Origin: Sphingomonas sp. 67-36
GTDB taxonomy: Bacteria > Pseudomonadota > Alphaproteobacteria > Sphingomonadales > Sphingomonadaceae
Length of the DNA: 64,000 nt
Direction of reading: 5' to 3'
Assembly (NCBI RefSeq): GCF_001897375.1
Contig: NZ_MKSU01000002.1
Span: 29,040-93,039 of the forward strand
In this document: positions 4,904 to 34,296 of the stretch, piece by piece
Position numbering within the stretch: the stretch's first letter is position 1
Layout of the letters: each line of letters begins with the position of its first letter
Position numbers and translations under genes: made by a program
The notes under the pieces: generated by a model
Told to the model about the DNA's origin: nothing
Databases searched by the model: none
The model's input: only the letters and a program-made list of their open reading frames with translations

Positions 4904-4948
4904 TGGAGCGGGCGAAGGGATTCGAACCCTCGACCCCAACCTTGGCAA
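4904..4948. repeat. 45 bp direct repeat, a copy of the 3' end of tRNA-Gly (distal att site of the island)
   Basis: TGGAGCGGGCGAAGGGATTCGAACCCTCGACCCCAACCTTGGCAA is identical to 34222-34266 in the same orientation; the tRNA 5' half is absent here. Confidence 0.85.
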
Positions 4949-5185
4949 AATTGCGTACAAACTATCCCAATTGAGGATAGCCAGAAAATGACATTTTGTC
5001 AAGATACTTCAAAGGGATAGATGCATCCAACTCTATCGTAGCCCGCCGCAGCCTCAGCAAGGTTGGCGTATACAATTTAAGGGGCCGCCGGCAACGGTCG
5101 GGAAAACTTTTTGCCCCCTTAGATGATCTCCCGCCGGCGCATCCGCGGTCCATTTATTAAAGCTCGGAAGAATCGTTTTGAGGAT

Positions 5186-5292
5186 CGTTATTCCGCTCTT
5201 TGATCATCAAAGTAGCGGAATAACGCTTGCATTTTGTTCAACCTCATAGTATCGGAATATCGCACATCTATGCTTTGATGATCGGAATTCCG
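5186..5292. promoter_or_regulatory. operator/promoter region of hipBA-1
   Basis: Near-perfect 40 bp palindrome CGTTATTCCGCTCTTTGATCATCAAAGTAGCGGAATAACG (5186-5225), plus two further ATCGGAAT half-sites at 5251-5258 and 5281-5288 and a second CTTTGAT at 5273-5279. Confidence 0.5.
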
Positions 5293-5293
5293 T

Positions 5294-5644
5294 ATGCCAG
5301 AATCGGTCTTCAACATGCTGGGCTCTCAGCTCCGCGCGGCACGGATGCAGCGCGGACTAAGCCAACCTGCGCTGGCTGCGCGGCTCGGCCGCAATCGGGC
5401 TCGCATCTCGGAACTGGAGCGCGATCTCGCAAACGATCGCTGGGGCCGCGACAGACTCACGCTGTTCGCAGAGATTTGTGACGCACTCGACCTTGTCCCC
5501 ATCCTGACACCTCGTTCGCGTGCTGCGGAAATCCGTGCGCTGGTCGGGGGAAGGGATCAAAGCACGCCGCGCGCCCATCCGGCACGCACCGCATATGATG
5601 AGCTCTTCGTCGATCTCGGAGAGGACGAAGGAGGAGAGGCCTGA
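5294..5644 (+). CDS. hipB: XRE-family HTH antitoxin (HipB-like), module 1
   Basis: HTH LRAARMQRGLSQPALAARLGRNRARISELE. The stop TGA overlaps the hipA ATG (TGATG at 5642-5646). An alternative start is at 5315. Confidence 0.75.
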   Translation: MPESVFNMLGSQLRAARMQRGLSQPALAARLGRNRARISELERDLANDRWGRDRLTLFAEICDALDLVPILTPRSRAAEIRALVGGRDQSTPRAHPARTAYDELFVDLGEDEGGEA

Positions 5645-6927
5645 TGGCCAAGGTTCCAGCCATCCTCGGCGTTCATCTGCTGGACGAGGCGCGCGGTCCC
5701 GTGCGGGTGGGTACGTTGGCTCGGGATGCCGATGGCGGGGTCGCCTTCGCGGTCGCCGAATCCTACCTCCGTGACCCCGCCAGGCCGATCCTGAGCCTCG
5801 GTTGGTACGATCCCGACAGCGAGGACGGTACACGTGACCGGCTGGCGGCCCGGCGGGACAAGATCGGCCTGCATGGCTCGCTGCCGCCCTGGTTCTCGGG
5901 GTTGCTACCCGAAGGCGCGCTCCGCGAACTCGTCCTCAGCGAAATGGGGCCTGGTGACCATGACCAGTTCGACGTGCTGACCCGGCTCGGCGCCGACCTT
6001 CCCGGTGCGGTGCTGGTCGTCCCGGAAACGGGTATCCCGCCCTCCGCGGGACCTGTCACGCTGGAGACCATCGCAGGTTTCCAGGCGCCCCTTCCCGACG
6101 GAACAGTCAAATTCTCGCTGGCGGGCATCCAGCTCAAATTCACCGCCAACCCCGATGGTGACCGCCTGACCGTTCCGGGGCGTGGCGCCACAGGCCGCTG
6201 CATCATCAAGGCGCCGAGCGATCGCTTCCCCGGTCTGCCTGAAGCCGAATATGGCGCGATGCGTCTCGCCGAGATGATCGGCGTCAGAACCGCGCCCTGT
6301 CGTCTTGTCCCGCGAGACGCCATCGCGGGCATACCGCCGGAACTTCTCGCTCATGGCGGGAACGTCCTGGCCGTCGATCGTTTCGATCGCACGGCCGAGG
6401 GCCAGCGCATTCACATCGAGGATGCCGGCCAGATCGTCGGCGCGGTTGGCGACCGAAAATATACGATGGCCACCACCGAGACGGTCATCAACATGATCCG
6501 CCGCTTCAGCACGGATCGCCGCGACGACATATTGGAAGCGGTGCGGCGGATCGTCGCGGACGTGCTGCTCGGGAATGGCGACAACCACCTCAAGAACTGG
6601 TCGTTCATCTTTCCAGAGCCCGGACAGGTCCGCCTGTCACCAGCTTATGACATCGTGCCGACCTTCCTCTTTATCCCGGGCGACAGGATGGCGCTGCGTT
6701 TCGTGGGGACGCACCAGTTCGAGATCGTCAACCTGCATCGGTTCGAACGGGTGGCGAGCTTCGTCCAGGTCGATCCCAAATGGATCGCGCGCGAAGTCAA
6801 AGCTACCGTGCAGCGGGCCCTGGATCTCTGGCCGATGGCCGCGCCGGAACTGTTGGGTGAGGAGCGCGGCAATCGGATCATCGAACGGCTATCGACGCTG
6901 CAACTCGTCCGTGAAACCAGAGCATAA
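5644..6927 (+). CDS. hipA: HipA-family Ser/Thr kinase toxin, module 1
   Basis: SLAGIQLKF (equivalent to the SLAGAQxK motif), GNGDNHLKNWSF catalytic loop, 427 aa with the N-terminal HipA coupling region. Confidence 0.85.
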   Translation: MAKVPAILGVHLLDEARGPVRVGTLARDADGGVAFAVAESYLRDPARPILSLGWYDPDSEDGTRDRLAARRDKIGLHGSLPPWFSGLLPEGALRELVLSEMGPGDHDQFDVLTRLGADLPGAVLVVPETGIPPSAGPVTLETIAGFQAPLPDGTVKFSLAGIQLKFTANPDGDRLTVPGRGATGRCIIKAPSDRFPGLPEAEYGAMRLAEMIGVRTAPCRLVPRDAIAGIPPELLAHGGNVLAVDRFDRTAEGQRIHIEDAGQIVGAVGDRKYTMATTETVINMIRRFSTDRRDDILEAVRRIVADVLLGNGDNHLKNWSFIFPEPGQVRLSPAYDIVPTFLFIPGDRMALRFVGTHQFEIVNLHRFERVASFVQVDPKWIAREVKATVQRALDLWPMAAPELLGEERGNRIIERLSTLQLVRETRA

Positions 6928-6933
6928 GTCCGC

Positions 6934-8640
6934 TCATGCCGCCTCCCAAACCTGATTGAGCACCTGCGCGGCCAACGCCGCTTTGTCCTGCGGAAGGAAG
7001 CGGGCATAATGTCTCGCAACCACATCGGGTGTGTCCTGAATGGCATAGCTTGCCTGCTCATAGGAGCCGGTCTTTTTCAGGGTATGCGTCGCGAGCACGT
7101 CTCGAACACTGTGCGGACCGTGAGGTAAAAGCCCCTTGATAGCCCCCCGCCCCGTATAGGGATTATAGATTCCGTATCGTTGGATAATCAGGCGCCAGGC
7201 TTCGTAGAAGCTGTTCTGGTCATAGGCGGCTTCTCTGCTGGTCCGTTTCACGGTCTTCACGAAAAATGTGCCGGGGTCGGCAAAACCGCCAAGCAGTATC
7301 GATCGATCCCGGCGGATGTAGGTTTCGATATAACCGTAGAGCCCCTCCAGATCGGGAAGGCGGAACTGGAAGGGACGTCTGGCAAAGAAGGACGAGCCGG
7401 CGTTCTTGAACGCTACGGCCGGGATGAACACCTCCCATATGCCTTCACGCTCAAGCCAGCGCAGTTCTCCGCATTTCCGAAGCTCCAACTGGCGCTCCGG
7501 CGTCGGCGGATGGCCCGGAAGACACAACAGAAGCTGCCGCAGATTCTTCTGACGCAATCCGAGGTGAAGACCCAGACGCAGCATCAATATCGATCGGACG
7601 GCTTCGGCCGCCGCCAACGGGTAGCGATCCGCGTCGGGCATCAAGCGAATGATCTCCTGAACGATGAGACGATATTCTCCGAGCGGACTCTCCGCTTCGA
7701 GGATTGGCAAGATCGGTTCGAAAGGATCGCGATGGACGCGGGCGACTCTTCGGATTTCGCCCGCGCGAGCAAAGCCGTATCGATAGAAAGCATCGCAAGC
7801 TCCGTCCCAGTCAGCCTGCACGGCGGCGATATCGGTTGGCGTGATCAGACCGGGGATGGGACGGACACGGTCGGCAAGCTCGGAATGCTGACGTAACCAG
7901 CCCGTTCCTGCGCCGGTCAGCGCCAGGCCAAGTTGCAGCATATTGGCTTCCCAGGCGGTGAAGAAGCCGCGGCGGCGCTCCCGCCATTGGAAATACCAGT
8001 CCCAGACCGCAGGAAAAATCAACAAGCCCATGGCCAGGCTCGCGCGTGGCACACCTGCGCCCGCGACCGGGGAAGACGGCGATGACGCCAGCGCGCCGAA
8101 CAACAGTCCGAGATATTCGACCTGCTGCATGGCCGTCTGCTCGTTCCAAACGCCGCTGCGCAGATATCCTATCTCCGTAAGCGTGGCGGTCTTGAAGCCG
8201 ACAAATCGGGCGACTTCTTTTGCAAGGCCTGCGGGTGCGTCCTTGCTCGCCGCGACCAGTTCGCACTCGACGTCGTCCAGCGGGTTGCGATCTTCATCGT
8301 CAGGCTTGTGGACCAACGATGGCTTTCGGCCCGTAAGTTCGGGAAAGCGCAGTGCGTATCGCTGTTTGAGCGCCTGAGCCTGAAACCGGCGGTACTCGGT
8401 TGAGCCGGCTATGATGACACGCCGAATCCATGCCACGATCTCGGCACGCTCGGTCGGAGACCGCCTGTCGAAATCATCCGGCAAATGCCAGGCAAGCCGC
8501 CGTCGCTCGGATGGTGAAACATCCTCAAGCTTCCGATGACCGCGCGCCGCATGCGCGCGATTGGGAAGCTTTGCTCGAAAATAACCGGCCGGCAGTTGAT
8601 AACGCCGTTCGATCCGAGTCAGCATATCCAGGCCTGGCAA
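6934..8640 (-). CDS. tyrosine recombinase / site-specific integrase (catalytic part)
   Basis: C-terminal HSVRDVLATH (HxxR) and VARHY (catalytic Tyr). The ORF only opens with a TTG at 8640, directly after an in-frame TGA. Confidence 0.8.
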   Translation of the reverse strand: MPGLDMLTRIERRYQLPAGYFRAKLPNRAHAARGHRKLEDVSPSERRRLAWHLPDDFDRRSPTERAEIVAWIRRVIIAGSTEYRRFQAQALKQRYALRFPELTGRKPSLVHKPDDEDRNPLDDVECELVAASKDAPAGLAKEVARFVGFKTATLTEIGYLRSGVWNEQTAMQQVEYLGLLFGALASSPSSPVAGAGVPRASLAMGLLIFPAVWDWYFQWRERRRGFFTAWEANMLQLGLALTGAGTGWLRQHSELADRVRPIPGLITPTDIAAVQADWDGACDAFYRYGFARAGEIRRVARVHRDPFEPILPILEAESPLGEYRLIVQEIIRLMPDADRYPLAAAEAVRSILMLRLGLHLGLRQKNLRQLLLCLPGHPPTPERQLELRKCGELRWLEREGIWEVFIPAVAFKNAGSSFFARRPFQFRLPDLEGLYGYIETYIRRDRSILLGGFADPGTFFVKTVKRTSREAAYDQNSFYEAWRLIIQRYGIYNPYTGRGAIKGLLPHGPHSVRDVLATHTLKKTGSYEQASYAIQDTPDVVARHYARFLPQDKAALAAQVLNQVWEAA

Positions 8641-8920
8641 GCGTGCGGGGTGTTTTCAGACCCGCGGCCCATCGGGCGATTGTCTTCCGGTCGGTGCGAT
8701 CTTCCGGCTCGGAGATTGCCTTGAGCAGTCGGCCGGCGGTTTCTCCATGTCGCGCCATGTGCAGCGTGAGCGCCTCGTGGAAGGTGGCAGGGTCTTTCCA
8801 CGACAGAGATCGCGGCTTGGGGAACTCGACGATTGGAAGAGGTTTGCGACCGGGCTTGGATGGCTGGACTTGGGATTCTCTAATTGCCTTCTTTCGTAAA
8901 GGCTTACGCGTAAAACTCAT
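8525..8920 (-). pseudogene. N-terminal HTH segment of the same integrase in another frame (probable 1-nt frameshift near 8625-8650)
   Basis: MSFTRKP...LTLHMARHGETAGRLLKAI...DRKTIARWAAGLKTPRTLA reads on naturally into LDMLTRIERRYQLPAGYF of the 6934-8640 frame. After the junction this frame turns into low-complexity S/A/R sequence. Confidence 0.55.
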
Positions 8921-9019
8921 ATAACTGAAATCGGCCTCTCTTGAATCGGGCCGAGCGCTTAACAGGGTGGGCTTCGTTGCAGAACCATAAGAAGCGGGGA
9001 AGAGGATCAGCCTAAAATT

Positions 9020-9138: not shown

Positions 9139-9139
9139 C

Positions 9140-9340
9140 ATGGTTCGATCGGCAGAAGAATTCGGCGCGGCGGTTACGCAGGCACGCAAGACTCTGGGGT
9201 TGACCCAGCGCGAGCTGGCGCTTGCCATCAACAGCGGCGAACGTTTCATTGTCGACCTTGAGGCGGGCAAGCCCACGGCGCAGCTTGGGAAGGCCCTGGC
9301 TGCCGCCCACGCTGTCGGGCTGCATCTGACGCTGGGCTGA
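9140..9340 (+). CDS. hipB: XRE-family HTH antitoxin (HipB-like), module 2
   Basis: ARKTLGLTQRELALAINSGERFIVDLEAG HTH; 66 aa; lies 3 nt upstream of hipA-2. Confidence 0.8.
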   Translation: MVRSAEEFGAAVTQARKTLGLTQRELALAINSGERFIVDLEAGKPTAQLGKALAAAHAVGLHLTLG

Positions 9341-9343
9341 TCG

Positions 9344-10645
9344 ATGCTGCTGCCTGTCCACTATTGCGATCGACCCGTCGCGACGATTCTGGCTGATGCT
9401 GATGACGTGCGCCTCAGCTACGACGCGAACTGGCTGACCGCACCCGATCGCTTTCCGATCTCGCTCACCATGCCGCTTGGCGATGCGCATTATGACGCCG
9501 CCACGATCCTGCCCTGGCTGATGAATCTGCTGCCCGAAGGCGAACCCCTGCGGGCAATGACACGTGCGCTGGGTGTCTCGGTGGAAGACGTGCTCGGCCT
9601 TATCATGGAGATTGGTAGCGATCTTGCCGGCGCGCTCTCCATCGGCTCCGCGGAACAGCAGGGATCGCCTGCCTATCGCGTCATTCCGGATGCCGCCGCG
9701 CTGGAACGCATCATTACCGACCTGCCGGCGCGCCCCTTTCTCGTCGGCGAAGACGGTGTCTCGATGAGCCTGGCCGGAGCGCAGGACAAGCTGCCGGTTG
9801 CTTTGCGCGGGGATCGGCTGGCTATTCCGGTCAATGGCGCGCCCTCCACACACATATTGAAGCCCGACAATCGTCGTCTGCCCGATAGCGTTCAGAATGA
9901 AGCGCTGTGCATGGTTCTCGCGCGCCGCATCGGATTACCGACCGCGCCTGTCACCACGGGCAGGGCCGGCGAGCGCTCCTATCTGCTGGTGACGCGCTAT
10001 GATCGTGAGATCGGCGAATATGACGCCCGTCGCATCCATCAGGAAGATTTCTGTCAGGCCCTGGGCCGGGTGCCCGCGGCCAAATATGAGCTCAACCGGA
10101 CTGGACGACATGGGCCATCGGTGGCGGATATGTTCGCACTGCTACGCCAGCACATGACCGCCCGCGATATCACCCGGCTTCTCGATGCCGTGATTTTCAA
10201 CATTGCGATCGGCAATGTGGATTCGCACGCCAAGAATTATTCCATTCTTCTGCCTGCTGAAGGCCCGAGCCTCGCACCGCTTTATGATCTGATGTCCGGC
10301 CTGGCCTGGGACGGGATCACGCAAAACCACGCCCAGGCCATCGGTGGCCAGCGCCGCGGACGGCATATTTATGGACGCCATTGGCAGCGCATGGCTGGCG
10401 CCTGCGGCCTCGCCGCAAAAGCTACGGTTCGCCGCGTTGGCGATGTCACGAAACGGCTGCTCCGTGAGTTGCCCGCCGCGACCGAAGAGGTCGCAAACAT
10501 GCCAGCAGGATCCGGGTTCATGCTCGGCACTTTCTCGCACGCAATCGAAGAACGCATCCGCGAAGTTCAGTTGCATGCACAGCAGGAAGGCGATGATGAT
10601 CAGTCAGGCGATGCAAGCGCGGCTATTGGCGATTCTGCTTACTGA
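9344..10645 (+). CDS. hipA: HipA-family Ser/Thr kinase toxin, module 2
   Basis: SLAGAQDKLPV, GNVDSHAKNYSIL, 433 aa. Confidence 0.85.
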   Translation: MLLPVHYCDRPVATILADADDVRLSYDANWLTAPDRFPISLTMPLGDAHYDAATILPWLMNLLPEGEPLRAMTRALGVSVEDVLGLIMEIGSDLAGALSIGSAEQQGSPAYRVIPDAAALERIITDLPARPFLVGEDGVSMSLAGAQDKLPVALRGDRLAIPVNGAPSTHILKPDNRRLPDSVQNEALCMVLARRIGLPTAPVTTGRAGERSYLLVTRYDREIGEYDARRIHQEDFCQALGRVPAAKYELNRTGRHGPSVADMFALLRQHMTARDITRLLDAVIFNIAIGNVDSHAKNYSILLPAEGPSLAPLYDLMSGLAWDGITQNHAQAIGGQRRGRHIYGRHWQRMAGACGLAAKATVRRVGDVTKRLLRELPAATEEVANMPAGSGFMLGTFSHAIEERIREVQLHAQQEGDDDQSGDASAAIGDSAY

Positions 10646-11065: not shown

Positions 11066-11932
11066 TCACTCCGCGGGTTCGCGCGGTGCTGCCAGTTCTG
11101 ACTCGGGTTGCATTTTCGCATAGTTCAAGGACCAGCGGAGCAGCAGCCTCCCGCCACAGTCGCAGGGAATGGTGCCCCACTCGTGCCTGGCCATTTTCTC
11201 GATAGAGGCGGAGGTCACAAAGTGCGTCCTTCCGCACAAGCATTCCAGGTCGCGCCCCCGTCTGGCGAACTCATATTCGCCTTCGCTGATCTCGACATAC
11301 CATGTCTCGGCGCATTCCGGATTAATGCAGCTGACGATCTTGCCCTCTGGGAGGCATTGCATCCGGCGTTTGTTGGTCGCGCCGCACAGGCACTCGAACT
11401 TGACCTCTTTACCAAGCCCCGTGGAGATCATCGTGCCGGTTGCGATGCGCTCGATCTCGGCTAGCGCCACTTCGACCTGCTTTCTGATTTTGGTGGCGTC
11501 ACCATATTGCTTGACCTGATCCGCCTTGTTGACCGGCAAGTTGGCATGCAGCGCCACGTTGGAGAGGGCGTTCCAGAGCTTCTGGACATAATTCGCCTTG
11601 AAGCCGACCTGGGTGCCGATCTTGATATATTCCTGCGCCTCGTAGTCTTCCCGTGTCGGCTCGAGGCCACTAGGCAATGGATGGCGGCTCATCGAGAGCG
11701 TGTAGGTGTCAGCCACATGGGGATCGACGCCCTCGGTAAGTATCTTGATCACCCGAGCCGGCTGCCATCGGATCTCGTCATGCGAGATATAGTCATGCAT
11801 GGCGCGCAGCCGTTCATAACAGATCCGCTCCAGGGCGAGCCTGCACTCCAGCGCAGCATAGGTCAGGTTGCGCGGGGAACCTTCTTCAAGTTGTGCTCGG
11901 ATGGTGGCGATGCTGTCACTCAGGTCGATCAT
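11066..11932 (-). CDS. hypothetical protein: helical N-domain plus duplicated Cys-rich (zinc-ribbon-like) C-terminal modules
   Basis: Two ECLCG(A/R)T...C..C units (FECLCGATNKRRMQCLPEGKIVSCINPECAE and LECLCGRTHF...IPCDCGG). Third-position codon bias supports coding. Confidence 0.6.
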   Translation of the reverse strand: MIDLSDSIATIRAQLEEGSPRNLTYAALECRLALERICYERLRAMHDYISHDEIRWQPARVIKILTEGVDPHVADTYTLSMSRHPLPSGLEPTREDYEAQEYIKIGTQVGFKANYVQKLWNALSNVALHANLPVNKADQVKQYGDATKIRKQVEVALAEIERIATGTMISTGLGKEVKFECLCGATNKRRMQCLPEGKIVSCINPECAETWYVEISEGEYEFARRGRDLECLCGRTHFVTSASIEKMARHEWGTIPCDCGGRLLLRWSLNYAKMQPESELAAPREPAE

Positions 11933-12140
11933 TTAGCTCCAATAGCACGGACGATCGGCGGAAGAATCAACTCGTCGGAAAAGAAGCGGTTCTGGAGAAC
12001 ATCGACGAGGCCGTCCTCCATTCGATTCTCGGGCTGAATAGCTTGGAATAGGACGGGAACAAGGTGCCCCGTCGGTGGGTGCGGAGGATGAGTTCCAAAT
12101 TCTCACGCGAATCCCCATCTCGGGCGCGAAGGAGGAGGAA

Positions 12141-12905
12141 ATGGCCGAAGTCTTTGCGCCGCACGATCCCGACCGATGCTGTCTGTGCGGCTCGGCGCAG
12201 GACCTGACGGGCGAGCACAAGGTGAAGGCGTCGACGATCAGGTCGCTGTTCTCGGGCGAGCCGATGATGATCGGCACGTTCGACGAAGGGGCGCGTCCTC
12301 GTCGGGCGCAGAGCTCCAAGTCTAAGGCTTTCCACTTCCAGTCGAGGGTCTGCGCCGCCTGCAACTCGACGAGGACGCAGGACGCAGACGTCGAGTTCGC
12401 GCGCTTCGACGAGGCAGCGCGGGAGTTGCTCGCGCAGGGCGCCGATCCCGCAACCGCGTTCGATGATCCGCGCTACGCCCTGGGGAGCGCGCCTTACCTG
12501 AACGTCTTCCGGTATCTGGCGAAGGTTCTGGCCTGCCACATCGCGGAAGTGGGCGGTCCGCGCTTCACGGCTCTTGTGGACTTCGCGATCGGGCGCAGCG
12601 ACGCGAACCCCGTGAGCGTCCGCATGGGGGCGGACGGCCGGTTCCAGTTCTGGTTCGACCACACCGGCGATCCGGAGTTTGCCGGGCACGGCGGCCTCGG
12701 CGCCACGTTCTCGAAGCGCACCGGGCTGGCGAACGGCTTCGCGTCCTCGTTGACGCATGGGGCGCTCCGATACGAGTTCGGGATCAGCTTCAACTGGATG
12801 ATCGGCCTCCTCCTGCGCCTCCAGCACCCCACCTTCCACCAGCGTCTCGCCGAAGTCCGTCGCGATGCGCTTGCCGCTGCCGACAGCGCGTCCGAGGCCG
12901 CCTGA
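12141..12905 (+). CDS. hypothetical protein with an HNH-like treble-clef motif
   Basis: CCLCGSAQDLTGEHKV ... VCAACNSTR (CxxC..EH..CxxCN). GGAGGAGGA RBS immediately upstream of the ATG at 12141. Confidence 0.5.
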   Translation: MAEVFAPHDPDRCCLCGSAQDLTGEHKVKASTIRSLFSGEPMMIGTFDEGARPRRAQSSKSKAFHFQSRVCAACNSTRTQDADVEFARFDEAARELLAQGADPATAFDDPRYALGSAPYLNVFRYLAKVLACHIAEVGGPRFTALVDFAIGRSDANPVSVRMGADGRFQFWFDHTGDPEFAGHGGLGATFSKRTGLANGFASSLTHGALRYEFGISFNWMIGLLLRLQHPTFHQRLAEVRRDALAAADSASEAA

Positions 12906-12919
12906 CCCGGACGCATGGG

Positions 12920-13654
12920 CTAATTGTGGCTCACGCTGCCCATCGCGTAGCCCGAGCCGAACGACCCGCGCGCGGCATCGGCGGCGTCGGCCGACTTCAT
13001 GAAGAGGTCCAGATTGAGCGGGTGGCGGTGGATCTCTTCCGAGAACTTCGCGTCGGCGGCGGCCTCCGCCTCGATCGAGGCGGTGATCTCGGCCAGCTTT
13101 TCGTAGTAGACCGCACGCATTAGGTTCAACGCGGTCTCGATCTGCTGACGGGCGCGCCGCACGAGGTTTCGATCCACGGTCTGCCGCCTGGTCACCACGC
13201 CGACCTTCGCTTCCGCCCCGCTGAACTGGAGGATGACGAGCTCGGCCTGCCATTCGCCGCCGTAGCTTCCGCCGGAGCCGAAATGGGCGATCGCGCTGTC
13301 GCGCAGATCGCTCAGCTCCTTGTGGACGATCTTCTCCTCGTCGCCGAAGCGGGTTCGCAGATCGAAGCCGCCTCGTTCCTTCGACTCTGTCTTGGTCGCA
13401 CGGACGTAGAGCACGAGCGCGTTGTTGAGCAGCGCCGACTCGGTGATGAGCTTGCGGTGGTCGTCGGGATCGGCCGGAACGGTCAGCTCCGCCTCCAGCG
13501 CATCGATGCTCTCCATCGCCATCACGAGATCGGTCGACAGCGAATGGAGGTCGCGCGCGCGCCGGATCTGGTTCGCAAGCGGGATGAGCCGCTTCTCGGC
13601 GAAGAAGCGGTCGGCGAAGGCGGAGAGGTTGTAGGTCGGGTCCGGTGCGGTCAT
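12920..13654 (-). CDS. HEPN-like protein (Rx5H motif), paralogue of 28036-28773
   Basis: LYVRATKTESKERGG...HKELSDLRDSAIAH. The pattern LY.RAT...ERG...H....LR(D/N).A(I/M)AH is shared with the 28 kb gene. Confidence 0.55.
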   Translation of the reverse strand: MTAPDPTYNLSAFADRFFAEKRLIPLANQIRRARDLHSLSTDLVMAMESIDALEAELTVPADPDDHRKLITESALLNNALVLYVRATKTESKERGGFDLRTRFGDEEKIVHKELSDLRDSAIAHFGSGGSYGGEWQAELVILQFSGAEAKVGVVTRRQTVDRNLVRRARQQIETALNLMRAVYYEKLAEITASIEAEAAADAKFSEEIHRHPLNLDLFMKSADAADAARGSFGSGYAMGSVSHN

Positions 13655-13722
13655 CGCTGGAATTTAGGAGCGGGCGGGCGCACTTCAAACACATAGGGCT
13701 GGCACGGCGGAGGGATCGGGAG

Positions 13723-14553: not shown

Positions 14554-14762
14554 GCTGCCGCGTACCGGCGAGAACACCGTGGCGCTGGCGCCATCGGCGA
14601 TTTCGGGACCGCCGCTGATCTCGTGCAGCAAACCCGCCGTAATCTACCGCCGGGCGGTCGCGAACAAATTTCGCTGATACCGAACGGCGTAGCTGCGTGG
14701 AGCAACGTTCGCATTCTTGCCGACTATTTCGACTTCACTTGACGACTGTAGGGCAAGCGCTC

Positions 14763-15518: not shown

Positions 15519-15591
15519 GTGGCGCAGGCTGCCGTTCGTAGTAGACAAAGGCAAGCATTCGGGTCGAGCCGAGTCTACGGGAGGGTCGCGC

Positions 15592-16428: not shown

Positions 16429-16484
16429 CGCAACGGAGCGAGCGTCGGGACGCAATTCCGAGCGTAGGATGTTAGGGTGCGCAT

Positions 16485-26542: not shown

Positions 26543-26624
26543 GACGAAAGCTCCGACTGTGAGGCCGAAGCTTCAGCATGGATTTCGTCACATCAACCTT
26601 GGCATTTGTGTCACAAAAGCTTGG

Positions 26625-27677
26625 CTATTGTGACGTTTGCGCCGCAGCTTTCTGCTCCCTGCGCAGCTTCGAAATGAAGTTCTGGATGGTGTCGACGCCG
26701 GGCGGATTGAGATTGCGCTGGCGGCTGAACTTGCGCGCGTATGCGGCAATGCTGGGTCCAATCTTGCCCGCTTCGAAATCCGCACGCACCTGCGCCATCC
26801 ACGGCTTTTTGCGCTTCGAGCGCGCGAGTCGGCTCTGTTCGGCGAAGCGGGTGCGACCCGCCTGCAGGAACTCGTAATTCTCGCGCCACAGCTCCCATTC
26901 GCGCGTGATCGCGCCGAGCATAATGGCGATGTGCGTGGCGCGCTCTGGATTGGCGCGCATCGCCTCGCACAGGCGCACGACACGGAAGGCATAGGCCGGA
27001 TCGCTTTCGGGGCCTGAGAGTTCGTCGATTTCTTCGAGGGTGTAGAAATCCCACTCACCGGTATCGATCGGATGCACGCCGGGCGCGGGCGCCGGCTCGG
27101 GCAGCATTTGCGGCCCGCCCTCGGCATCTTCGTCGATCGACACCACCGAGATCGCCTCGTCGAAGAACTTCTCCGCCGCTGCGCCGCCCTTGCGTAACGC
27201 ATCCGGCACGAGCGAAGCGGCATAGGCCTTGAGCTCGTCTTCACTCGCATCGTCTCCGAGACACATACGGGCGATGTCGAGCCCTTCCTCACCATCCATC
27301 GACACTGCCCATTCGAGCACATTGGCGAGATTGACGGCGCGATGCTCTGCTTCACCTTGCTCGAGCACCTCGCGGGCAATGGTTTCAAGCTCCTCGGGCG
27401 GCAACATTCTGAAGCGGATCGGCACGGCGCGGGTGATCGTCCAACTCCGCGGCTTCTTGCGGCCCTGCTTCGGAAAGGTGATGGTCCGCCGCTCGAGGAT
27501 CTGCTCCCCGAAACCCGCGAGCGGGTCGCCTCTAATGAAAATCTCTGGCTTGGAGACCGTTGCGCCGGGCGCCGCCTCCTCGGCCGCGTTCGCTACCGAT
27601 TCCCACCACGAGATACCATACGCGAGCATCGCGTCCCGGGCGCGTTCGAAGGCGTTGCGGGGATGATTGTCTGCCAT
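26625..27677 (-). CDS. hypothetical protein (350 aa), acidic middle region and basic C-terminus
   Basis: Start taken at MADNHPRN (27677). Coding-like codon bias. No motif recognised. Confidence 0.55.
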   Translation of the reverse strand: MADNHPRNAFERARDAMLAYGISWWESVANAAEEAAPGATVSKPEIFIRGDPLAGFGEQILERRTITFPKQGRKKPRSWTITRAVPIRFRMLPPEELETIAREVLEQGEAEHRAVNLANVLEWAVSMDGEEGLDIARMCLGDDASEDELKAYAASLVPDALRKGGAAAEKFFDEAISVVSIDEDAEGGPQMLPEPAPAPGVHPIDTGEWDFYTLEEIDELSGPESDPAYAFRVVRLCEAMRANPERATHIAIMLGAITREWELWRENYEFLQAGRTRFAEQSRLARSKRKKPWMAQVRADFEAGKIGPSIAAYARKFSRQRNLNPPGVDTIQNFISKLRREQKAAAQTSQ

Positions 27678-28035
27678 GGTATTAGCTGTCCGCTCCTGTG
27701 CGCCGGATGCCTCGCTCGCGGGCACCTGCACGATGGCGCGAGATTCTGGCCCGCGCGGACGATCCGCGTCAATTTCAGAATCTCATCCGCGTTTTCGGCT
27801 TTCGGAAGGGCCGGTTCCTGCATCGCATATCTGAAACCCGCCAGTCTGCAGACGGCCCAATCTCGGTTCATGCGGACCCGTGCTAACGTATGGCCGCTTT
27901 CGGGCGGTTCAACCTGGCGGCGAACGGCAGAATTGTCGGCACCACCGGCCAGCAGCGAGGTTTTTCTACATCAAAAGATGCTAGCATGAGAAGGCAAATT
28001 TTTTAGAATGGGCCAGCTTGTTTCCGAGGATATTC

Positions 28036-28773
28036 ATGGCGCTACCAAAGATTTTGGATCTTCTTCGCTTGGCGAGCGACCTCCGGGCCAGGGGCACGCA
28101 CGGATCGTTCACGGGTCCGCTGCGGAAGGCTGCCACGGCTCAATCGTGCCTCGCCGATCTTAGGCAGGCGGGGCATTGCTGCGAAGTCTTTCGAAGCACC
28201 GAACATCCAGGGCGCGAAGATGAGTATAGCGCAGCCCATCGAACCGTTCAGCAATCACTGTTAATGATGGCCGTGTCTTTGTATTCGCGGGCGACACACT
28301 CGACGGGCCAATATGGGGAGAGGGGTGCGATCCAAGTTTCGTCCCGTCTTCCTCCGCAGCTGCTGGCGGACCATGCGGCCGTCGTCGCGCTTCGCAATAA
28401 AGCTATGGCCCATGTCTACTTCGCAGAAGATCATGAGGACGGGGTCTGGCACGATCAGTTCCTGTTCGCGATACAAGATCTTGAGAAGGGATGGCTTCCC
28501 GGAAGCGCAACCCGAACGACACAAACGCGGCCGAAAACGCTGCTGCGGTTAGAGCGGCTCATTCCGGAAGCCGGCGGAATTTTGTCGCGGCAATTTCAAA
28601 AACACCTGCAAACCGCGATGAACGCATTCAACGCCGCAAGCGTCGATGTAAATCTTGCTGATTACACTGATAATGCCGAAGAATACTTTCCTAGCGAGAG
28701 TTTTGCGCGAGCAATTTTGCGAGATGCCGCGCCGAAAGCTGAGACCGTTATCCTCGGTGACAACTCAGCTTAG
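28036..28773 (+). CDS. HEPN-like protein (Rx5H motif), paralogue of 12920-13654
   Basis: LYSRATHSTGQYGERGA...HAAVVALRNKAMAH. GAGGA RBS 5 nt before the ATG at 28036. Lower GC than its surroundings. Confidence 0.55.
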   Translation: MALPKILDLLRLASDLRARGTHGSFTGPLRKAATAQSCLADLRQAGHCCEVFRSTEHPGREDEYSAAHRTVQQSLLMMAVSLYSRATHSTGQYGERGAIQVSSRLPPQLLADHAAVVALRNKAMAHVYFAEDHEDGVWHDQFLFAIQDLEKGWLPGSATRTTQTRPKTLLRLERLIPEAGGILSRQFQKHLQTAMNAFNAASVDVNLADYTDNAEEYFPSESFARAILRDAAPKAETVILGDNSA

Positions 28774-29152: not shown

Positions 29153-30049
29153 CTACCCGTCGCGGTATCGCAAGGCGTCCACGAACAGCTTGAAGGCTGG
29201 CGAAGCAAACCGACGGCTCGGGTAGTACAGGTGATAGCCAGGAAGATCGGGCGTGGCACGGGAAAGCACACGTTCAAGCCGACCATCACCAAGATGATCC
29301 TTGATCTGATCGAGCGGAAGGTAGGCGAGCCCATGGCCGGCCAGAGCGGCGTCGCGAATGAGATCAATTGTGTTGAGTATAAGCGGACCATCGATGCGCA
29401 CGCGTGTTTCGCGTTTCCCGACTGCCAGGCGCCATCCGTTCAGCGTCCCGGAACTTGGCAAGCGGAGATTGATCGCTCGATGCTCGACGAGCTCTGATGG
29501 CGAGCTCGGGCGGCCATGCGCCTCGAAATACGATGGTGCGCCAACGATCGCCATCGGGACATCCGCGCTGATGCGGACGGCGATCATGTCCTTCGCGATC
29601 TCGCCGCCGAGCCTCACGCCCGCGTCGAACCGATCCGCCACGATATCGGCCATGCCATAGTCAATTGTTATCTCGACAGTGATGTCGGGATGATCTGGCA
29701 GAAGTCTGTCCATCGCCGGCAGCAGGACGATCTTGGCCGCGTGCTCGACCGTCGTAATGCTAATCGTGCCGGAGGGCTTGTCGCGCAGGTCGCTCAACGA
29801 CGCGATTGCGGCATCCATGTCGCGCATCATCGGTGCCAGTGTCGCAATTAAGCGATCACCCGCTTCTGTCGGTGCCACACTGCGGGTCGTGCGCGACAAC
29901 AACCGAAGACCTAGCCTGGCCTCCAGTTTCCGGACGATCTGGCTGAGCGACGACTGCGACATTCCGAGCCGAACAGCGGCGCGCGTGAAGCTGCGCTCTT
30001 CGGCGACCACGAGAAACGCAGTCATGTCGGCCATCTCGTCGCGGCGCAT
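29153..30049 (-). CDS. LysR-family transcriptional regulator
   Basis: MTAFLVVAEERSFTRAAVRLGMSQSSLSQIVRKLEARLGLRLLSRTTR HTH; divergent from the hydrolase gene. Confidence 0.9.
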   Translation of the reverse strand: MRRDEMADMTAFLVVAEERSFTRAAVRLGMSQSSLSQIVRKLEARLGLRLLSRTTRSVAPTEAGDRLIATLAPMMRDMDAAIASLSDLRDKPSGTISITTVEHAAKIVLLPAMDRLLPDHPDITVEITIDYGMADIVADRFDAGVRLGGEIAKDMIAVRISADVPMAIVGAPSYFEAHGRPSSPSELVEHRAINLRLPSSGTLNGWRLAVGKRETRVRIDGPLILNTIDLIRDAALAGHGLAYLPLDQIKDHLGDGRLERVLSRATPDLPGYHLYYPSRRFASPAFKLFVDALRYRDG

Positions 30050-30185
30050 TTATCACTCAGATGATAGGTTCATGCGGAATTGAGAGTCTAATCGCTGGAC
30101 CCGCTTTGGCCTAGATCTGTTTCATCAGCACTGGCTGCTGACCGCAATTTCCCGAAGTTCACGAACCATCTCGAGGAGAAGCGCC

Positions 30186-31244
30186 ATGAGCAACGAAGCA
30201 TACACACTCGCCGCGAGCGACACTGCGGTCGATGTCGGCGCAAACGACATCGACTACAAGAAGGCGCTCGGCGCCGACGACGGCGGCCTCGTCGATACCG
30301 CAGTCGAGGCGATCAAGGGCATGGCCGGAAAGGTCGTCGACAAGCTTGACCCGCTGACCGAGCAATATGCCGGCCTGTTCAAGACTGGCCTGCGCACACC
30401 TGTGATGCGCAAGCCGAGCGACTACGACATGGACTTCGAGGAGACCTGGTTCCCGTCGATGGACGGCGTACCGCTGGAAGCCTGGTTCATTCCCGCGCCC
30501 TCCGACAAACTGCTCATCATCAATCATCCGATGACCTGCAATCGATACGGCTTTCCGGGCCACCTACCCGAGTACAAGGCCTACTTTGGCGGCTTCGAGG
30601 TCAATTTCCTGCCGGAGCTCACGGCGCTCCATGACGCCGGCTACAACATCCTGACTTACGATCTTCGCAATTGCGGCCGCAGCGGGGAAGGCAATGGCGG
30701 GATCAGTGGGCTCGGATTGCTCGAATGCCGCGACGTCGTCGGCTCGGTGCGCCATGCTCGCGAGCATCCCGTCATGGGCAAGATGCGCACCAGCCTGTTC
30801 AGCCGTTGCATGGGTGGCAACTCGACAATCATAGCAATGGCCAAATGGCCTGACGAATTCCGTCACATCGAGGCGCTTGCTCTGCTCAACGTCGTTTCTG
30901 GCCCGACCTTCATCGAGCGCGGCGCGGAAAACCTCGGGCTCGACCCGGCCGCTGCTGCGAAGCGGCTCGATGAGCGCTGCCGGGAGACGACTGGATTCAG
31001 CGTCTTCGATTTTCGGCCGCAGGACTACGGCCACGGAGTCACCATTCCCACTTTCGTGGCGCAGTTGCGCCGCGACTTCCTGATCCATGGCGAGAAGGAC
31101 GGTCAGGAGATCTTCGACTCACTTGCCGCTGAAACGAAGGAGCTGCTGTGGATCGACCAGTCGAACCAGCGCTTTTACGCCTACAACCACTTCGGCCAGC
31201 ATCCCGAACGGCTGATCGAGTGGTTCGACAAGCACATGGCCTGA
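30186..31244 (+). CDS. alpha/beta-fold hydrolase-like protein (possible Cys nucleophile, dienelactone-hydrolase-like)
   Basis: Length and LFSRCMGGNS elbow-like motif; the fold assignment is tentative. Confidence 0.5.
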   Translation: MSNEAYTLAASDTAVDVGANDIDYKKALGADDGGLVDTAVEAIKGMAGKVVDKLDPLTEQYAGLFKTGLRTPVMRKPSDYDMDFEETWFPSMDGVPLEAWFIPAPSDKLLIINHPMTCNRYGFPGHLPEYKAYFGGFEVNFLPELTALHDAGYNILTYDLRNCGRSGEGNGGISGLGLLECRDVVGSVRHAREHPVMGKMRTSLFSRCMGGNSTIIAMAKWPDEFRHIEALALLNVVSGPTFIERGAENLGLDPAAAAKRLDERCRETTGFSVFDFRPQDYGHGVTIPTFVAQLRRDFLIHGEKDGQEIFDSLAAETKELLWIDQSNQRFYAYNHFGQHPERLIEWFDKHMA

Positions 31245-31479
31245 AGGGACCGCCGCTCGCCTGACGCAACACGTTTCAAACTGAGTAATCTGGGGGCGCT
31301 CTCCGAGCACTCCCAGATGCCGAGTGCGGGGCGACGAATGTAGGGCACCTTTTTGACAGCCGGATTTGTCGTTCGAATGGCTGCTGTGTTGGCGGAAGAC
31401 GCCGGACCCGGTTTCATAACCGGTGAACTGCTTGGTAGGGCTGATAGTCCGCACGACCAGCAGCGATCACGTATGGACG

Positions 31480-31971
31480 ATGGGCAGAAGCGAGAGCACC
31501 GATAGGCGGATGGAGGGAGATGAAGCGCGGATCATCGGCGAACTGGCAACGAGTCTCGGCGCCGGGGCGCAATATTTGCGTAGCGTGGCGGCTTCGCCGC
31601 CCGCCGACAAAGGCGCCTATCTGCTGCTGCTGCGCCTCGACGCACCGCTCGACCTGCGACTGCTTCACTCCGAGATCAGGCTGTGCTCCGGATATTACGT
31701 CTACGCCGGCAACGCCTATGGCTCCGGCGGGATCGGCGCACGTCTGCGGCGTCATCTTTGGCGCGACAAGCGCCTGCACCGGCATATCGACCGGTTGACC
31801 GGCATCGCCGACGCCATCCACGCCTTCGCCGTGCCTGACGGGCATGAATGCGTGATCGTCGCGCAGCTTCTGGCAACAGGGCGGTTCGACGTGCCTGTCC
31901 CGGGCTTTGGCAGCAGCGATTGTCGCCATTGCGAGGCGCATCTGCTCCGCCTGCGACCACGCGCATTCTGA
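31480..31971 (+). CDS. DUF123 / GIY-YIG-superfamily (Uri-like) protein
   Basis: GAYLLLLRL...SGYYVYAGNAYGSGGIGARLRRHLWRDKRLHRHIDRL. Start uncertain (31423, 31480 or 31510). Confidence 0.6.
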   Translation: MGRSESTDRRMEGDEARIIGELATSLGAGAQYLRSVAASPPADKGAYLLLLRLDAPLDLRLLHSEIRLCSGYYVYAGNAYGSGGIGARLRRHLWRDKRLHRHIDRLTGIADAIHAFAVPDGHECVIVAQLLATGRFDVPVPGFGSSDCRHCEAHLLRLRPRAF

Positions 31972-32026
31972 TGCGGCATGTCTTGCGTGACTCGCACTGG
32001 CATCTTCTGTTCAACAGAAATAGGAT

Positions 32027-32395
32027 TTGTTGGACATGGTCATGGGCAAACATCAATTTTTGAGCGGCGCTAAGAGCGGCAAGACCGCTCACACGAAATC
32101 GGGACGCAGCGTGCGAACGGCGAAAACGACGGAGCGTGTCACGGGTCATGCCGGCCAGGTCGAGGCAGTGATGGCGGCGGCCGAACGCTCCGGGTTGCTC
32201 GAGGAAAAGAGCGGCCGGATCGGCGGCCGGGTGAGCCCGGCGCTCGTCAAGCGCGCCAAGGCGCTGACCGGCATCGATACCGACACCGATCTCATCGAAT
32301 TTGCGCTGGCCAACGTCGCGCTAGAGGATGGGTTCGCCGAGTGCTTCAAGGCCGCGCGCGGCAAGGTGGATCCGGACATCCAGCTCGGCTTCTGA
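32027..32395 (+). CDS. putative type II antitoxin (VapB-like, ribbon-helix type C-terminal half)
   Basis: RVSPALVKRAKALTGIDTDTDLIEFALANVALED. Its stop is 2 nt before the GTG of the next ORF. Confidence 0.5.
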   Translation: MLDMVMGKHQFLSGAKSGKTAHTKSGRSVRTAKTTERVTGHAGQVEAVMAAAERSGLLEEKSGRIGGRVSPALVKRAKALTGIDTDTDLIEFALANVALEDGFAECFKAARGKVDPDIQLGF

Positions 32396-32397
32396 AG

Positions 32398-32874
32398 GTG
32401 GCGGCGTTCGATATCGGCGCGGCACTGCGCTGGTCGCGCTTCGATCCCGGTCGCACACTGCAACGTCGGGCGGACGGAGAGTTACCCTCCGCCAGCGCGG
32501 AAGAGTTGGCCGGGCAACCTCTGCTGCTCGCCACCTGCGTTTATATCGATCAACTCCAGGGCCGCGCGCCGTCGCTGGTCGAGGGGCTGATCGACAAGCG
32601 ACAGGTCAATCATTCGACGGTCGCGATTCAGGAACTCAGCCACACAATCGGCGTACTCGATCCGGCCGACAAGCGGACGCCGAATGTCATCACCGTCATC
32701 CGTGATCAGATCGAGGCGATGCCCGAGCACCGGACCTTCGCGCCCGATGCCGATGTGCTCGGCCGCGCCGCCTTGCTGTCGGGCACCCCTTCGAAACGCC
32801 TGAAGAAGCCGGATGCAATTCTGTCCAGTATGCCGTGGGCGTCTCAAAGCTCGATGTCCCGTGAACGCGCGTGA
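32398..32874 (+). pseudogene. PIN-like (VapC-type) toxin remnant: active-site Asp apparently replaced and C-terminus truncated
   Basis: LLATCVYIDQLQGRAP...HSTVAIQELSHTIG resembles the N-terminal half of a PIN family that, from memory, reads LLDTCVYIDQLQG. The expected C-terminal ..LT.N..DF.. part is absent, and the 3' end overlaps the convergent phd-like gene. Confidence 0.35.
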
Positions 32875-33092
32875 TTGCGTTCGAACTCACCGCCGGGAAA
32901 GCTCCGCAGGTAGGAGACGAAGCTAGCCCTTTCGCGCCGGATCGTCCGATGCGCGATTTCGGCGGCTTCGAGCGACACGAGTGCGGCGACGGGCTTGCCG
33001 TGGCGGGTAATCGTCACGAACTCGCCCCTGATGGCTTTGTCAACAAGATGGGAAAGCCCCGCCTTCGCATCCTTGAGACCGATGGTCAGCAT
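32844..33092 (-). CDS. Phd/YefM-family antitoxin with no cognate toxin
   Basis: MLTIGLKDAKAGLSHLVDKAIRGEFVTITRHGKPVAALVSLEAAE. No credible toxin ORF lies downstream on the minus strand. Confidence 0.7.
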   Translation of the reverse strand: MLTIGLKDAKAGLSHLVDKAIRGEFVTITRHGKPVAALVSLEAAEIAHRTIRRERASFVSYLRSFPGGEFERNHARSRDIEL

Positions 33093-33201
33093 CTGCTGCT
33101 CCGTATTGTGGTCACTTATGACCGCAATGCCGATCAGTGCTCCAAATACAAGTAGCGCGTGATCGGTCTCATGCTGCCTGCATCGGAAAAAGCACCTGTG
33201 A

Positions 33202-33816
33202 TTGGTAACGAAACGTTCCAGCATCGGAGCCTTTCGCATCACGATACGGGCGGGCTATCCATATAAGTTCGACTTCGGTGTCGGGGGCGCCGTGGGATCG
33301 GCCATGCGCGAATGTGCGGCCCCGCAGCGTCGGCAGGATGCTCATCGGGTTTCCGGCGAGTCGAAAACCCGATGGGAGACCGAACGCGGCCCCGACCGCA
33401 ACATGGTGCTGCTCGAGGACTTCTGGTTCATCGACCGAAAGGGACGGAAATGGTCGGCGGCTCGTAGCAGCCGGATCAGCGGCGCCTCGATTCCCAAGCC
33501 GCTGTGGACCATAGTGGGCTCGCCCCACACCGGCGACTATCGCCGTGCATCGATCGTGCACGATATCGCTTGCGAAGAGGCAGGTTCGCGCCGGCAGGCT
33601 GACAAGATGTTCTACGACGCCTGCCGGGAAGGCGGTTGCAGCATCTGGGAATCGACTGTTCCCTGTGTGGGAGTGCGCATCGGGGCATGGCGGGGCTCGA
33701 TCGCCACACTGGACGACGAGGCAATCCGGCTGAGTGAAGACGTAACGATGGCCGAAGTTCAGCTGGACTTTCGGATCGTCAGCGAGGACGTTACTGCGGC
33801 AGGGCGAGGCCGATGA
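33202..33816 (+). CDS. DUF1353-like protein
   Basis: SGASIPKPLWTIVGSPHTGDYRRASIVHDIACEE...RRQADKMFYDACREGG. Start uncertain. Confidence 0.5.
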   Translation: MVTKRSSIGAFRITIRAGYPYKFDFGVGGAVGSAMRECAAPQRRQDAHRVSGESKTRWETERGPDRNMVLLEDFWFIDRKGRKWSAARSSRISGASIPKPLWTIVGSPHTGDYRRASIVHDIACEEAGSRRQADKMFYDACREGGCSIWESTVPCVGVRIGAWRGSIATLDDEAIRLSEDVTMAEVQLDFRIVSEDVTAAGRGR

Positions 33817-34221
33817 TCCCGATCTCGTCGAAGCGCGGACCGACGTTGCGATCAAAGCGCAAGCTGGAATTGGCAGCCGCCTCAAGAGCACCGATTTAGC
33901 TGCTAGGGCCGAGGGGCAAGCGGGCCTCGATCGTGGGCGCCGCAATCGCGAAGTCGATCAGGCCCGTGAGCGCGAGAAGCTCGACCGGAAGGTCGAGGCA
34001 GCGGAGAGAACTACGACCGGGAAATGAAGACGTGGCGGCCGGACGAAACACTGTGCACGCATCGGGCAAGGCGTTTCCCCGGTGGACTGATTTCGACGCC
34101 AACGTACCAAGCTGTACGCCAGCATGAGTAACCTGCGTGGTCGCCCGGTGGTCGCCCGCGCAAAATCAAGGCAATGAGCGCGTGGCCCGCGCCCACTAAG
34201 CTATTGATTTTCTTAGAAAAT

Positions 34222-34296
34222 TGGAGCGGGCGAAGGGATTCGAACCCTCGACCCCAACCTTGGCAAGGTTGTGCTCTACCCCTGAGCTACGCCCGC
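34222..34296 (-). tRNA. tRNA-Gly (anticodon GCC), 75 nt including CCA
   Basis: The reverse complement GCGGGCGTAGCTCAGGGGTAGAGCACAACCTTGCCAAGGTTGGGGTCGAGGGTTCGAATCCCTTCGCCCGCTCCA folds as a cloverleaf with anticodon loop TTGCCAA. Confidence 0.95.

Follow-up and report, generated by a model that had tools for sequence, protein, structure and literature searches.

A probable integrative island at the 3' end of a tRNA-Gly gene in Sphingomonas sp. 67-36, with a frameshifted tyrosine recombinase and defence-related cargo

A repeat of the tRNA-Gly 3' end bounds a unit of 29,318 bp

The window, the whole stretch of DNA analysed here, comprises 64,000 nt from Sphingomonas sp. 67-36 (assembly GCF_001897375.1, contig NZ_MKSU01000002.1, forward-strand positions 29,040-93,039), and all positions below are those of the window unless another locus is named. 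It contains a repeat-bounded unit of 29,318 bp (4904-34221) with a large tyrosine recombinase gene, toxin-antitoxin modules and a run of genes that includes relatives of known phage-defence systems, and this unit is probably an integrative island inserted at the 3' end of a tRNA-Gly gene. The sole tRNA of the window is an intact tRNA-Gly(GCC) at 34222-34296 on the minus strand, called by ARAGORN and also by Rfam. The 45-mer TGGAGCGGGCGAAGGGATTCGAACCCTCGACCCCAACCTTGGCAA, which is the exact 3' end of this gene, has just two copies in the window, at 34222-34266 and at 4904-4948, both in the same orientation. They are referred to here as the cores of the left and right attachment sites, attL (within the intact tRNA) and attR (the displaced partial copy, minus strand) respectively. 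The attR copy extends from the first base of the anticodon loop to the CCA, and the 5' half of the tRNA is absent from it. A first-pass annotation of the window had reported this duplication without a 5' half, and the match was confirmed as exact.

Matches to the 45-mer were not produced by chance in 100 shuffles with up to three mismatches permitted. Neither a third nor a degenerate copy, of the kind left by tandem islands, was found when the window was scanned with up to 16 mismatches in 45 and with 20-mer pieces. A weaker likeness between both copies (TGATTTT..GAAAA) continues for about 20 nt past the tRNA 3' end. On the chromosomal side of attR (4852-4903, minus strand), the bases directly beyond the core look like a native tRNA-Gly trailer followed by a terminator-like hairpin (4878-4852), and the TTTTCCAGT-type trailer to the left of attR resembles those at two related loci, L207 and L210, described below. 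A plasmid origin was considered and rejected, as plasmid matches were limited to the 45-mer against plasmid tRNA genes.

The recombinase gene is frameshifted

The presumed island integrase is encoded at 6934-8920 on the minus strand, where the main frame runs from 8640 to 6934 (568 aa). The N-terminal ~95 aa (8920 to ~8634) are out of this frame; alignment with L207 and L212 located a 1-nt insertion near 8634, in CCAGGCC, and without the extra base the recombinase gene reads from 8920 to 6934 and encodes 661 aa. This segment (...KRGRKPKPIVEFP...FHEAL.LHM.RHGD...W..G.K.PRS) reads through in frame into the remainder of the protein in 58 homologues. The stretch surrounding the insertion (8560-8700) was unchanged in the ENA, JGI and NCBI assemblies, and the frameshift is therefore not a one-off assembly error. 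The N-terminal ~95 residues may form a DNA-binding domain, and they probably matter because they are conserved in every intact homologue. Since the insertion splits the recombinase gene, this copy of the island is probably immobile and fixed in place. The tyrosine recombinase that the first-pass annotation placed between the repeats is consequently there, but with a correction, as its gene is no longer intact.

Six residues, R363, K412, H510, R513, H544 and Y545, were invariant in two alignments (20 and 25 homologues), and the C-terminus carries the pattern HSVR...ATH...RHY. Searches of Pfam, NCBIfam, PADLOC and PHROG with the 568-aa frame gave no match. We take the protein to be a very divergent tyrosine recombinase.

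Close relatives of the recombinase lie beside the same tRNA-Gly fragment

The recombinase belongs to a family whose proteins, of about 660-800 aa, fall into at least 1,710 clusters at 90% identity. Almost all of these carry the annotation "hypothetical", and neither Pfam, NCBIfam nor PHROG has a model for the family. The family loci inspected were L081-L144, L207-L215 and L257-L261. Full-length members (median ~675 aa) are solitary, with no conserved neighbours and in variable surroundings. The close relatives examined were P0002 (92% identity), P0005 (88%), P0008 (80%), P0010 (77%) and P0011 (77%), located at six loci, and reading of the DNA gave five distinct intact proteins of 660-662 aa.

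In all five of these relatives (six loci: L207, L210 and L212-L215), a partial tRNA-Gly fragment, TTGCCAAGGTTGGGGTCGAGGGTTCGAATCCCT(T)CGCCCGCTCCA, was present 150-280 nt past the recombinase stop codon, oriented as it is in the window. No full tRNA was called by ARAGORN at the fragment in the three relative loci scanned, and three short relative contigs end within it. In L207 and L210 the GC content climbs at the fragment, from 0.55-0.60 to 0.64-0.68. The genes beyond the fragment in L207, L210 and L215 are core-like (TonB receptors, PhoD, PilZ, an adhesin and an efflux pump), and the chromosome on this side differs among the relatives wherever the contig continues.

The cargo upstream of the recombinase varies from one relative to the next. 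It includes DUF5623, Xre-RES and HipA in L207; AbiE, MazG_C/HMUDK_hel, Metallophos and EVE in L210; AAA_16 and DUF6414 in L212; an EAD5-trypsin protein, a Tle1-like protein, a dCTP deaminase and an S8 protease in L214; and NOV_C in L215. A divergent hipBA module adjoining the recombinase is common to the window, L212/L213 and L214. Because the position of the fragment is shared by five of five relatives, the cargo varies and core-like genes follow, the window island belongs to a family of tRNA-Gly islands whose integrase lies at the end far from the tRNA. The first-pass proposal of an integrative island at the tRNA-Gly 3' end, bounded by attL and attR and carrying defence and toxin cargo, is thus supported by the six relative loci. 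The far-end arrangement is confined to the close subclade. Family members that are more distant, at 50-70% identity, are at other sites, some with an upstream tRNA of another identity, and homologues at 63-64% identity are found on five IMG/VR contigs, one of them beside a tRNA-Ser.

The island ends carry candidate recombination sites and an outward promoter-like motif

The putative P arm of the attachment site (4949-5190, minus strand) contains a sigma-70-like motif and a conserved block, GACCCCA..AATT..TACGC. A promoter scan placed the -35 element (TTGACA) at 5002-4997 and the -10 element (TATCCT) at 4979-4974, about 25 nt before the att core and pointing out of the island. TTGAC, a spacer of 17-18 nt and TA...T were invariant in six islands (the window, L207, L210, L212, L214 and L215), across which the mean column identity of the P arm was 52%. 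The target of such a promoter could not be the recombinase, as the latter lies upstream of the motif. Called genes just past attR lie on the opposite strand (L207, L210, L215 and the window), and in the window the tRNA terminator-like hairpin comes after the motif. RNA sequencing runs, sought as evidence for the promoter, contained about 5% of the words and were too sparse to be useful. A structured small RNA formed from the promoter and the tRNA fragment was considered and rejected, the fold z-score being -0.92 and Rfam showing the tRNA only.

At the other end, about 400 nt of non-coding DNA beside the tRNA (33817-34221) form the presumed P' arm. A perfect palindrome, ATTTTCTAAGAAAAT, abuts the tRNA 3' end, and within the same interval (34138-34221) a tandem GGGCGACCAC direct repeat is similar to the GCGACCCCA block conserved in the P arm. 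Judged from sequence, the palindrome and the repeat may be arm sites for the recombinase; no 9-mers of the arm-type repeat kind are common to the P and P' arms.

Flanking DNA, composition and assemblies

The right flank is ~82% identical at the nucleotide level to the nearest genome, Sphingomonas sp. 3P27F8, and the similarity begins at window position 34221, one base outside the tRNA 3' end. In 3P27F8 the orthologous tRNA-Gly (L001, 7610-9878) abuts a gene for a large serine recombinase of 557 aa, the open reading frame (ORF) of which enters the 3' end of the tRNA; adjacent to this gene are those for a second resolvase and a ThiF-family protein. A different, unrelated element thus occupies the same tRNA in that genome.

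The left flank (window 1-4903 and L202 1-6979) encodes TonB receptors, a tannase, a TetR regulator, a flavin adenine dinucleotide (FAD) monooxygenase and a P450, together with a 115-aa protein, possibly a fragment, whose only match is VanA_C. These genes make up a catabolic set, and the region may be older acquired DNA. The GC content was 0.624 for the island, 0.689 for the right flank and 0.624 for the left flank (11.9 kb, of which 7 kb lie outside the window), so that the island is more AT-rich than the 34.3-64 kb flank, as stated at the first pass, but is matched in this by the left flank. The correlation of tetranucleotide frequencies (r) was 0.91 between island and right flank and 0.90 between island and left flank; between one half of the right flank and the other it was 0.96.

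Sequence identical to the window was found in many bioreactor and wastewater metagenomes (runs released 2016-2020) and in the metagenome-assembled genome GCA_017305145.1, and the assemblies agreed with the window wherever they overlapped it, with at most one difference in 14.2 kb. In metagenome run X10 a single unitig of 29,327 nt spans from core to core (4919-34245). The metagenome runs are represented by k=31 contigs, too short in word length to cross the 45-bp repeat, and no run of raw reads contains the sequence. Depth is a hint only; in X10 it was 43.1 over the left flank, 44.2 over the island and 55-70 over the right flank. In the same run the island is one clean unitig and the right flank at 34297-36000 falls into many short ones, which suggests co-existing strains that have the right flank in common but not the island side.

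Toxin-antitoxin modules and known defence systems of the island

Two HipBA modules lie on the plus strand, each with a helix-turn-helix antitoxin gene directly upstream of that for a kinase with HipA N- and C-terminal domains, and their HipA proteins are 28% identical to each other. The module hipBA-1 (5294-6927; HipB 5294-5644, HipA 5644-6927; Pfam HTH_31, Couple_hipA and HipA_C) sits between the recombinase stop codon and the P arm, a place where the relatives have no hipBA. The module hipBA-2 (9140-10645; HipB 9140-9340, HipA 9344-10645) is divergent from the recombinase and is the one kept beside it in L212-L214. Near the tRNA are an orphan Phd/YefM antitoxin gene (32844-33242, minus strand; Pfam 5e-11, TIGR01552 7e-10) and a DUF1353 gene resembling those for phage tail-assembly chaperones (33202-33816, plus strand; Pfam DUF1353 8e-16, phrog_1158 3e-18), the latter followed by the non-coding P' arm.

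The two largest cargo genes have named relatives. The product of 17322-21119 (minus strand, 1265 aa) is a defence sirtuin of DSR1 type with an N-terminal SIR2 domain, which is the best-matching stretch (residues 1-350). Its match to PADLOC Dsr1 had an E-value of 7.8e-91 and that to NCBIfam Dsr1 one of 4e-122 (409 bits, under the cut-off of 1400), and the GAGVS, TTNFD and IHIHG motifs, including the catalytic N and H, are intact. The product of 22429-26211 (plus strand, 1260 aa) is a full-length match to the anti-phage nuclease Upx (PMC13099982, PMC13601566): PADLOC Upx gave 2.5e-215 over residues 42-1246, NCBIfam Upx 5e-248 (826 bits, under the cut-off of 1900) and the PDB entry 9wuf_A 1.7e-140. 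As both score under the NCBI equivalog cut-offs, they are, by sequence resemblance, divergent members of these single-gene systems. DSR proteins deplete NAD+ (bioRxiv 10.1101/2021.12.14.472415). The PADLOC run proposed at the first pass thus returned two named systems, and the unknown function then given to this part of the island applies to many of its genes but not to the two largest.

A RES-domain protein (13645-14553, plus strand; Pfam RES 3e-17) of 276-302 aa, depending on the start codon, has neither an adjoining Xre gene nor an operonic antitoxin. Stand-alone antiphage RES proteins (aRES) combine RES with the N-terminal domain PF18870 in 300-600 aa (bioRxiv 10.64898/2026.01.28.702374). 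The window protein is like these in standing alone among defence genes, but it is slightly short, and PF18870 was undetected by hmmscan at E-values up to 10, the hhsearch used by the aRES authors being more sensitive.

Cargo genes with no named system

The remaining cargo consists largely of genes without a family match, for which a part in defence is suggested by their position. Gene A (11066-11932, minus strand, 288 aa) has a Cys-rich C-terminus; gene B (12075-12905, plus strand, 276 aa) carries CxxC...H...CxxCN motifs that are HNH-like by eye only; gene E (14763-15554, minus strand, 263 aa) ends in a hydrophobic C-terminus; and gene K (26625-27731, minus strand) encodes 368 aa. None of these four matched a family. 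Gene F (15517-16428, plus strand) encodes a trypsin-like serine protease (Pfam Trypsin_2, 1e-10), with weak PADLOC matches to RT-Protease_XI and PDC-M35A.

Gene C (12920-13654, minus strand, 244 aa) carries a HEPN-like motif, LRDxAIAH. Its homologues form 105 clusters, all unnamed, and have an invariant Y.RATKT / LRDxAIAHFG signature of the HEPN Rx4-6H kind; one at 63% identity lies directly after a gene for a 610-aa TIR protein in a defence island of Altererythrobacter (L242, 6117-8732). Gene L (28018-28773, plus strand, 251 aa; LRNKAMAH) is a weak paralogue, so that one island holds two weakly related HEPN-like proteins (Y.RAT..., LR[DN]xA[IM]AH).

Gene G (16485-17321, plus strand, 278 aa) belongs to an unnamed family of ~290-aa proteins with a confident predicted fold (AlphaFold predicted local distance difference test, pLDDT, 90.1; predicted template modelling score 0.85). 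A structural match was found neither in the PDB (best probability 0.16) nor in BFVD, where the best result was one local match of 52 columns (probability 0.84, E 1.7). The family appeared very rare in a word-index search, which gave 39 clusters, and this was corrected by an exhaustive profile search, which found 799 clusters at 50% identity (E <=0.001). Four of its residues, H49, R50, E52 and R53, are invariant. Gene G is solitary in 22 loci; a two-gene system of F and G was accordingly dismissed, as none of these 22 has an F homologue or any conserved neighbour.

Towards the tRNA the cargo is of an ordinary accessory kind, with a LysR regulator (29153-30049, minus strand) and a weak alpha/beta-hydrolase match (30186-31244, plus strand), followed by a DUF123 protein (31423-31971, plus strand; Pfam 6e-17). 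The gene content given in the first-pass annotation held broadly, its two hipBA modules included; a putative VapBC-like pair at 32027-32874 has no support in Pfam or NCBIfam and was discarded. Among the island ORFs scanned, no relaxase, coupling protein or type IV secretion genes were found with Pfam, NCBIfam and PADLOC, and no capsid, terminase, portal, tail, lysis or replication genes were matched with Pfam, NCBIfam and PHROGs.

A cargo cassette is shared with other sphingomonads

An 8.5-kb part of the cargo (12.87-21.39 kb) is common to other sphingomonad genera. The segments 12871-14606 (C and RES) and 17228-21387 (the 3' end of G, DSR1 and its upstream region) are directly joined, at ~92-93% nucleotide identity, in Sphingobium indicum, Sphingomonas melonis, Sphingomonas sp. 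JC676, Croceicoccus and a metagenome contig (loci compared: L238, L239, L241, L243, L244 and L245). The other copies share a 2.6-kb deletion (window 14607-17227) and keep a 26-aa tail of G, so that the window has the fuller form, with E, F and G, which is presumably ancestral. An obligate pairing of C with RES was rejected: the two are together only in near-identical copies of the cassette, and C homologues at 56-76% identity occur without RES.

Origin of the island

The arrangement is most readily explained if a large tyrosine recombinase from the island recombined the 45-bp core of its circular attachment site (attP) with the identical 3' part of the tRNA-Gly gene in a Sphingomonas living in wastewater or a bioreactor. 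The island's copy of the core would now complete the tRNA, as attL (34222-34266), and the original 3' part of the tRNA would have been displaced to the far end, as attR (4904-4948), followed by its own trailer and terminator. The far end is a backbone common to the relatives, made up of hipBA, a recombinase reading toward attR and a P arm with an outward promoter-like motif, and the region between backbone and tRNA is variable cargo. Toxin-antitoxin modules may have stabilised the island, and the benefit to the host would be phage defence, by NAD+ depletion (DSR1, RES), by growth arrest (HipA) and by nucleic-acid cleavage through Upx and perhaps the HEPN-like and HNH-like proteins. The 1-nt insertion has split the recombinase, most likely leaving this copy fixed. 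We put the probability of this account as a whole, an integrative island of 29,318 bp in the tRNA-Gly 3' end, of a recurring family and with a frameshifted integrase, at roughly 0.85.

Several observations weigh against it. There is no direct evidence of excision or integration. The comparison with related genomes proposed at the first pass yielded no unoccupied tRNA-Gly site in any of them; the exact left junction was absent from 185,579 GTDB species representatives in an exact search, and in the sole genome that shares the right flank the tRNA is taken up by another element. No close relative of the left-flank P450 was found among sphingomonads (the best, at 39%, is non-sphingomonad), which indicates that the left flank is itself accessory and of no help in locating an empty site. 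The island is not compositionally distinct from the left flank and differs from the right flank only. The more distant members of the recombinase family have a tRNA upstream of the recombinase, not downstream. As for the recombinase itself, Pfam Phage_integrase (PF00589) did not match the window protein and matched only 2 of 20 homologues, at E ~0.04 (0.039); a profile search of the PDB gave no sequence match; and the AlphaFold model is weak (pLDDT 58.8), the catalytic C-terminus being among the low-confidence parts. Nevertheless, the only high-probability (0.99) Foldseek matches of this model were XerD and the XerD catalytic domain, in keeping with a tyrosine recombinase, though with E-values of 0.014-0.055 and low template modelling scores.

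Four other explanations were weighed. The island may still be mobile, through the 568-aa product that follows the frameshift or through a recombinase acting in trans from another element of the community: the catalytic part (8640-6934) is open with all catalytic residues present, the two att cores are still 100% identical and related recombinases are common in the same habitat. We consider mobility unlikely in view of the conserved N-terminal residues that the product lacks, the depth of the island, equal to that of the left flank in one clean unitig, and the near-complete agreement of the assemblies over the window. Less probable still is a composite, with a hipBA-integrase element at the far end, an integrase-less cargo element at the tRNA and the internal att site lost. 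No third att copy was found, even at 16 mismatches in 45, and the order cargo, recombinase, attR is that of five of five close relatives, which makes it the normal layout of the family and accretion unnecessary. In favour of a composite are the distant family members with a tRNA directly upstream of the recombinase, the lone phage-like DUF1353 gene and orphan Phd antitoxin at the tRNA-proximal end, the use of the same tRNA as a hotspot, with the serine-recombinase element there in the nearest genome, and the low GC content of the left flank also.

That the unit is a decayed prophage or phage satellite and not a dedicated genomic island is very improbable. One phage-type gene does lie at the tRNA end, and recombinase homologues are on the IMG/VR contigs mentioned above, but phage structural, lysis and replication genes were not matched in the island ORFs scanned, the recombinase itself has no PHROG match and the related islands carry defence and toxin cargo only. 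An origin of the 45-bp repeat other than by integration, through chance or as the remnant of a duplication in a variable, GC-poor region, is scarcely credible: it would agree with the equal GC content of left flank and island and with the lack of an empty site, but shuffling gave no chance matches, the fragment starts at the anticodon loop like classical tRNA att sites, and the same fragment lies beside the same recombinase in six other loci with different cargo. Integration at the tRNA-Gly gene is the explanation preferred here.

Comparison with known elements

Classical tRNA islands with P4-type integrases (leuX, pheV and selC in Enterobacteria) combine a duplicated tRNA 3' end and an internal integrase with a patchy composition and with accessory cargo in which defence and toxin-antitoxin genes abound. 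The window island shares the tRNA 3' direct repeat, the internal integrase, the patchy composition and this type of cargo. The P4-type integrase, however, lies beside the tRNA, is ~400 aa long and matches Pfam Phage_integrase, whereas the ~661-aa integrase of the window island lacks a Pfam match and is located at the far end, where it reads toward attR.

IntB13, the integrase of ICEclc, is unusually long, at ~657 aa; the window recombinase, with no significant Pfam Phage_integrase match, is set beside it by description only. ICEclc, from Pseudomonas knackmussii B13, targets tRNA-Gly 3' ends, integration restoring the target, and when integrated it bears at one end a constitutive promoter, Pcirc, that faces outward (PMC5812530). 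The window island likewise lies at a tRNA-Gly 3' end and has a conserved outward promoter-like motif at the att core. The core measures 18 bp in ICEclc and 45 bp in the window island, and ICEclc is a conjugative element of ~100 kb, whereas conjugation genes were not seen in the scanned ORFs of the window island. Pcirc and the integrase of ICEclc are at opposite ends, and after circularisation the promoter drives the integrase; the window motif is on the recombinase's own end, downstream of it, and so cannot work as Pcirc does. Our best guess is that it would serve the circular form, by analogy with Pcirc.

Defence islands at tRNA genes are well known, and the window island adds one example of an ordinary kind. 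Its noteworthy parts are an undescribed integrase family with a fixed architecture, the conserved outward promoter-like motif and several unnamed cargo genes. That the ~660-aa recombinase defines an undescribed family of tRNA-Gly defence islands, that the motif is a promoter of the circular form, which after excision would fire across attP like Pcirc but at another target, and that at least one cargo protein is a new anti-phage protein is, taken jointly, a tentative proposal that may well fail in one of its parts. The candidates for a new single-gene anti-phage protein are G, the HEPN-like C and L, or A, B, E and K.

The integrase family is unseen by Pfam-based searches for mobile elements, and its recognition would reveal overlooked islands in Alphaproteobacteria. 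In the tRNA-Gly subclade, everything between the tRNA and the recombinase could be harvested as variable defence cargo, and the unnamed genes of the window, including G (pLDDT 90, no PDB or viral structural match), form a short list for phage challenge. The island also offers a dated example of decay, the insertion in the integrase being present in every assembly checked and the locus being found in runs released from 2016 to 2020.

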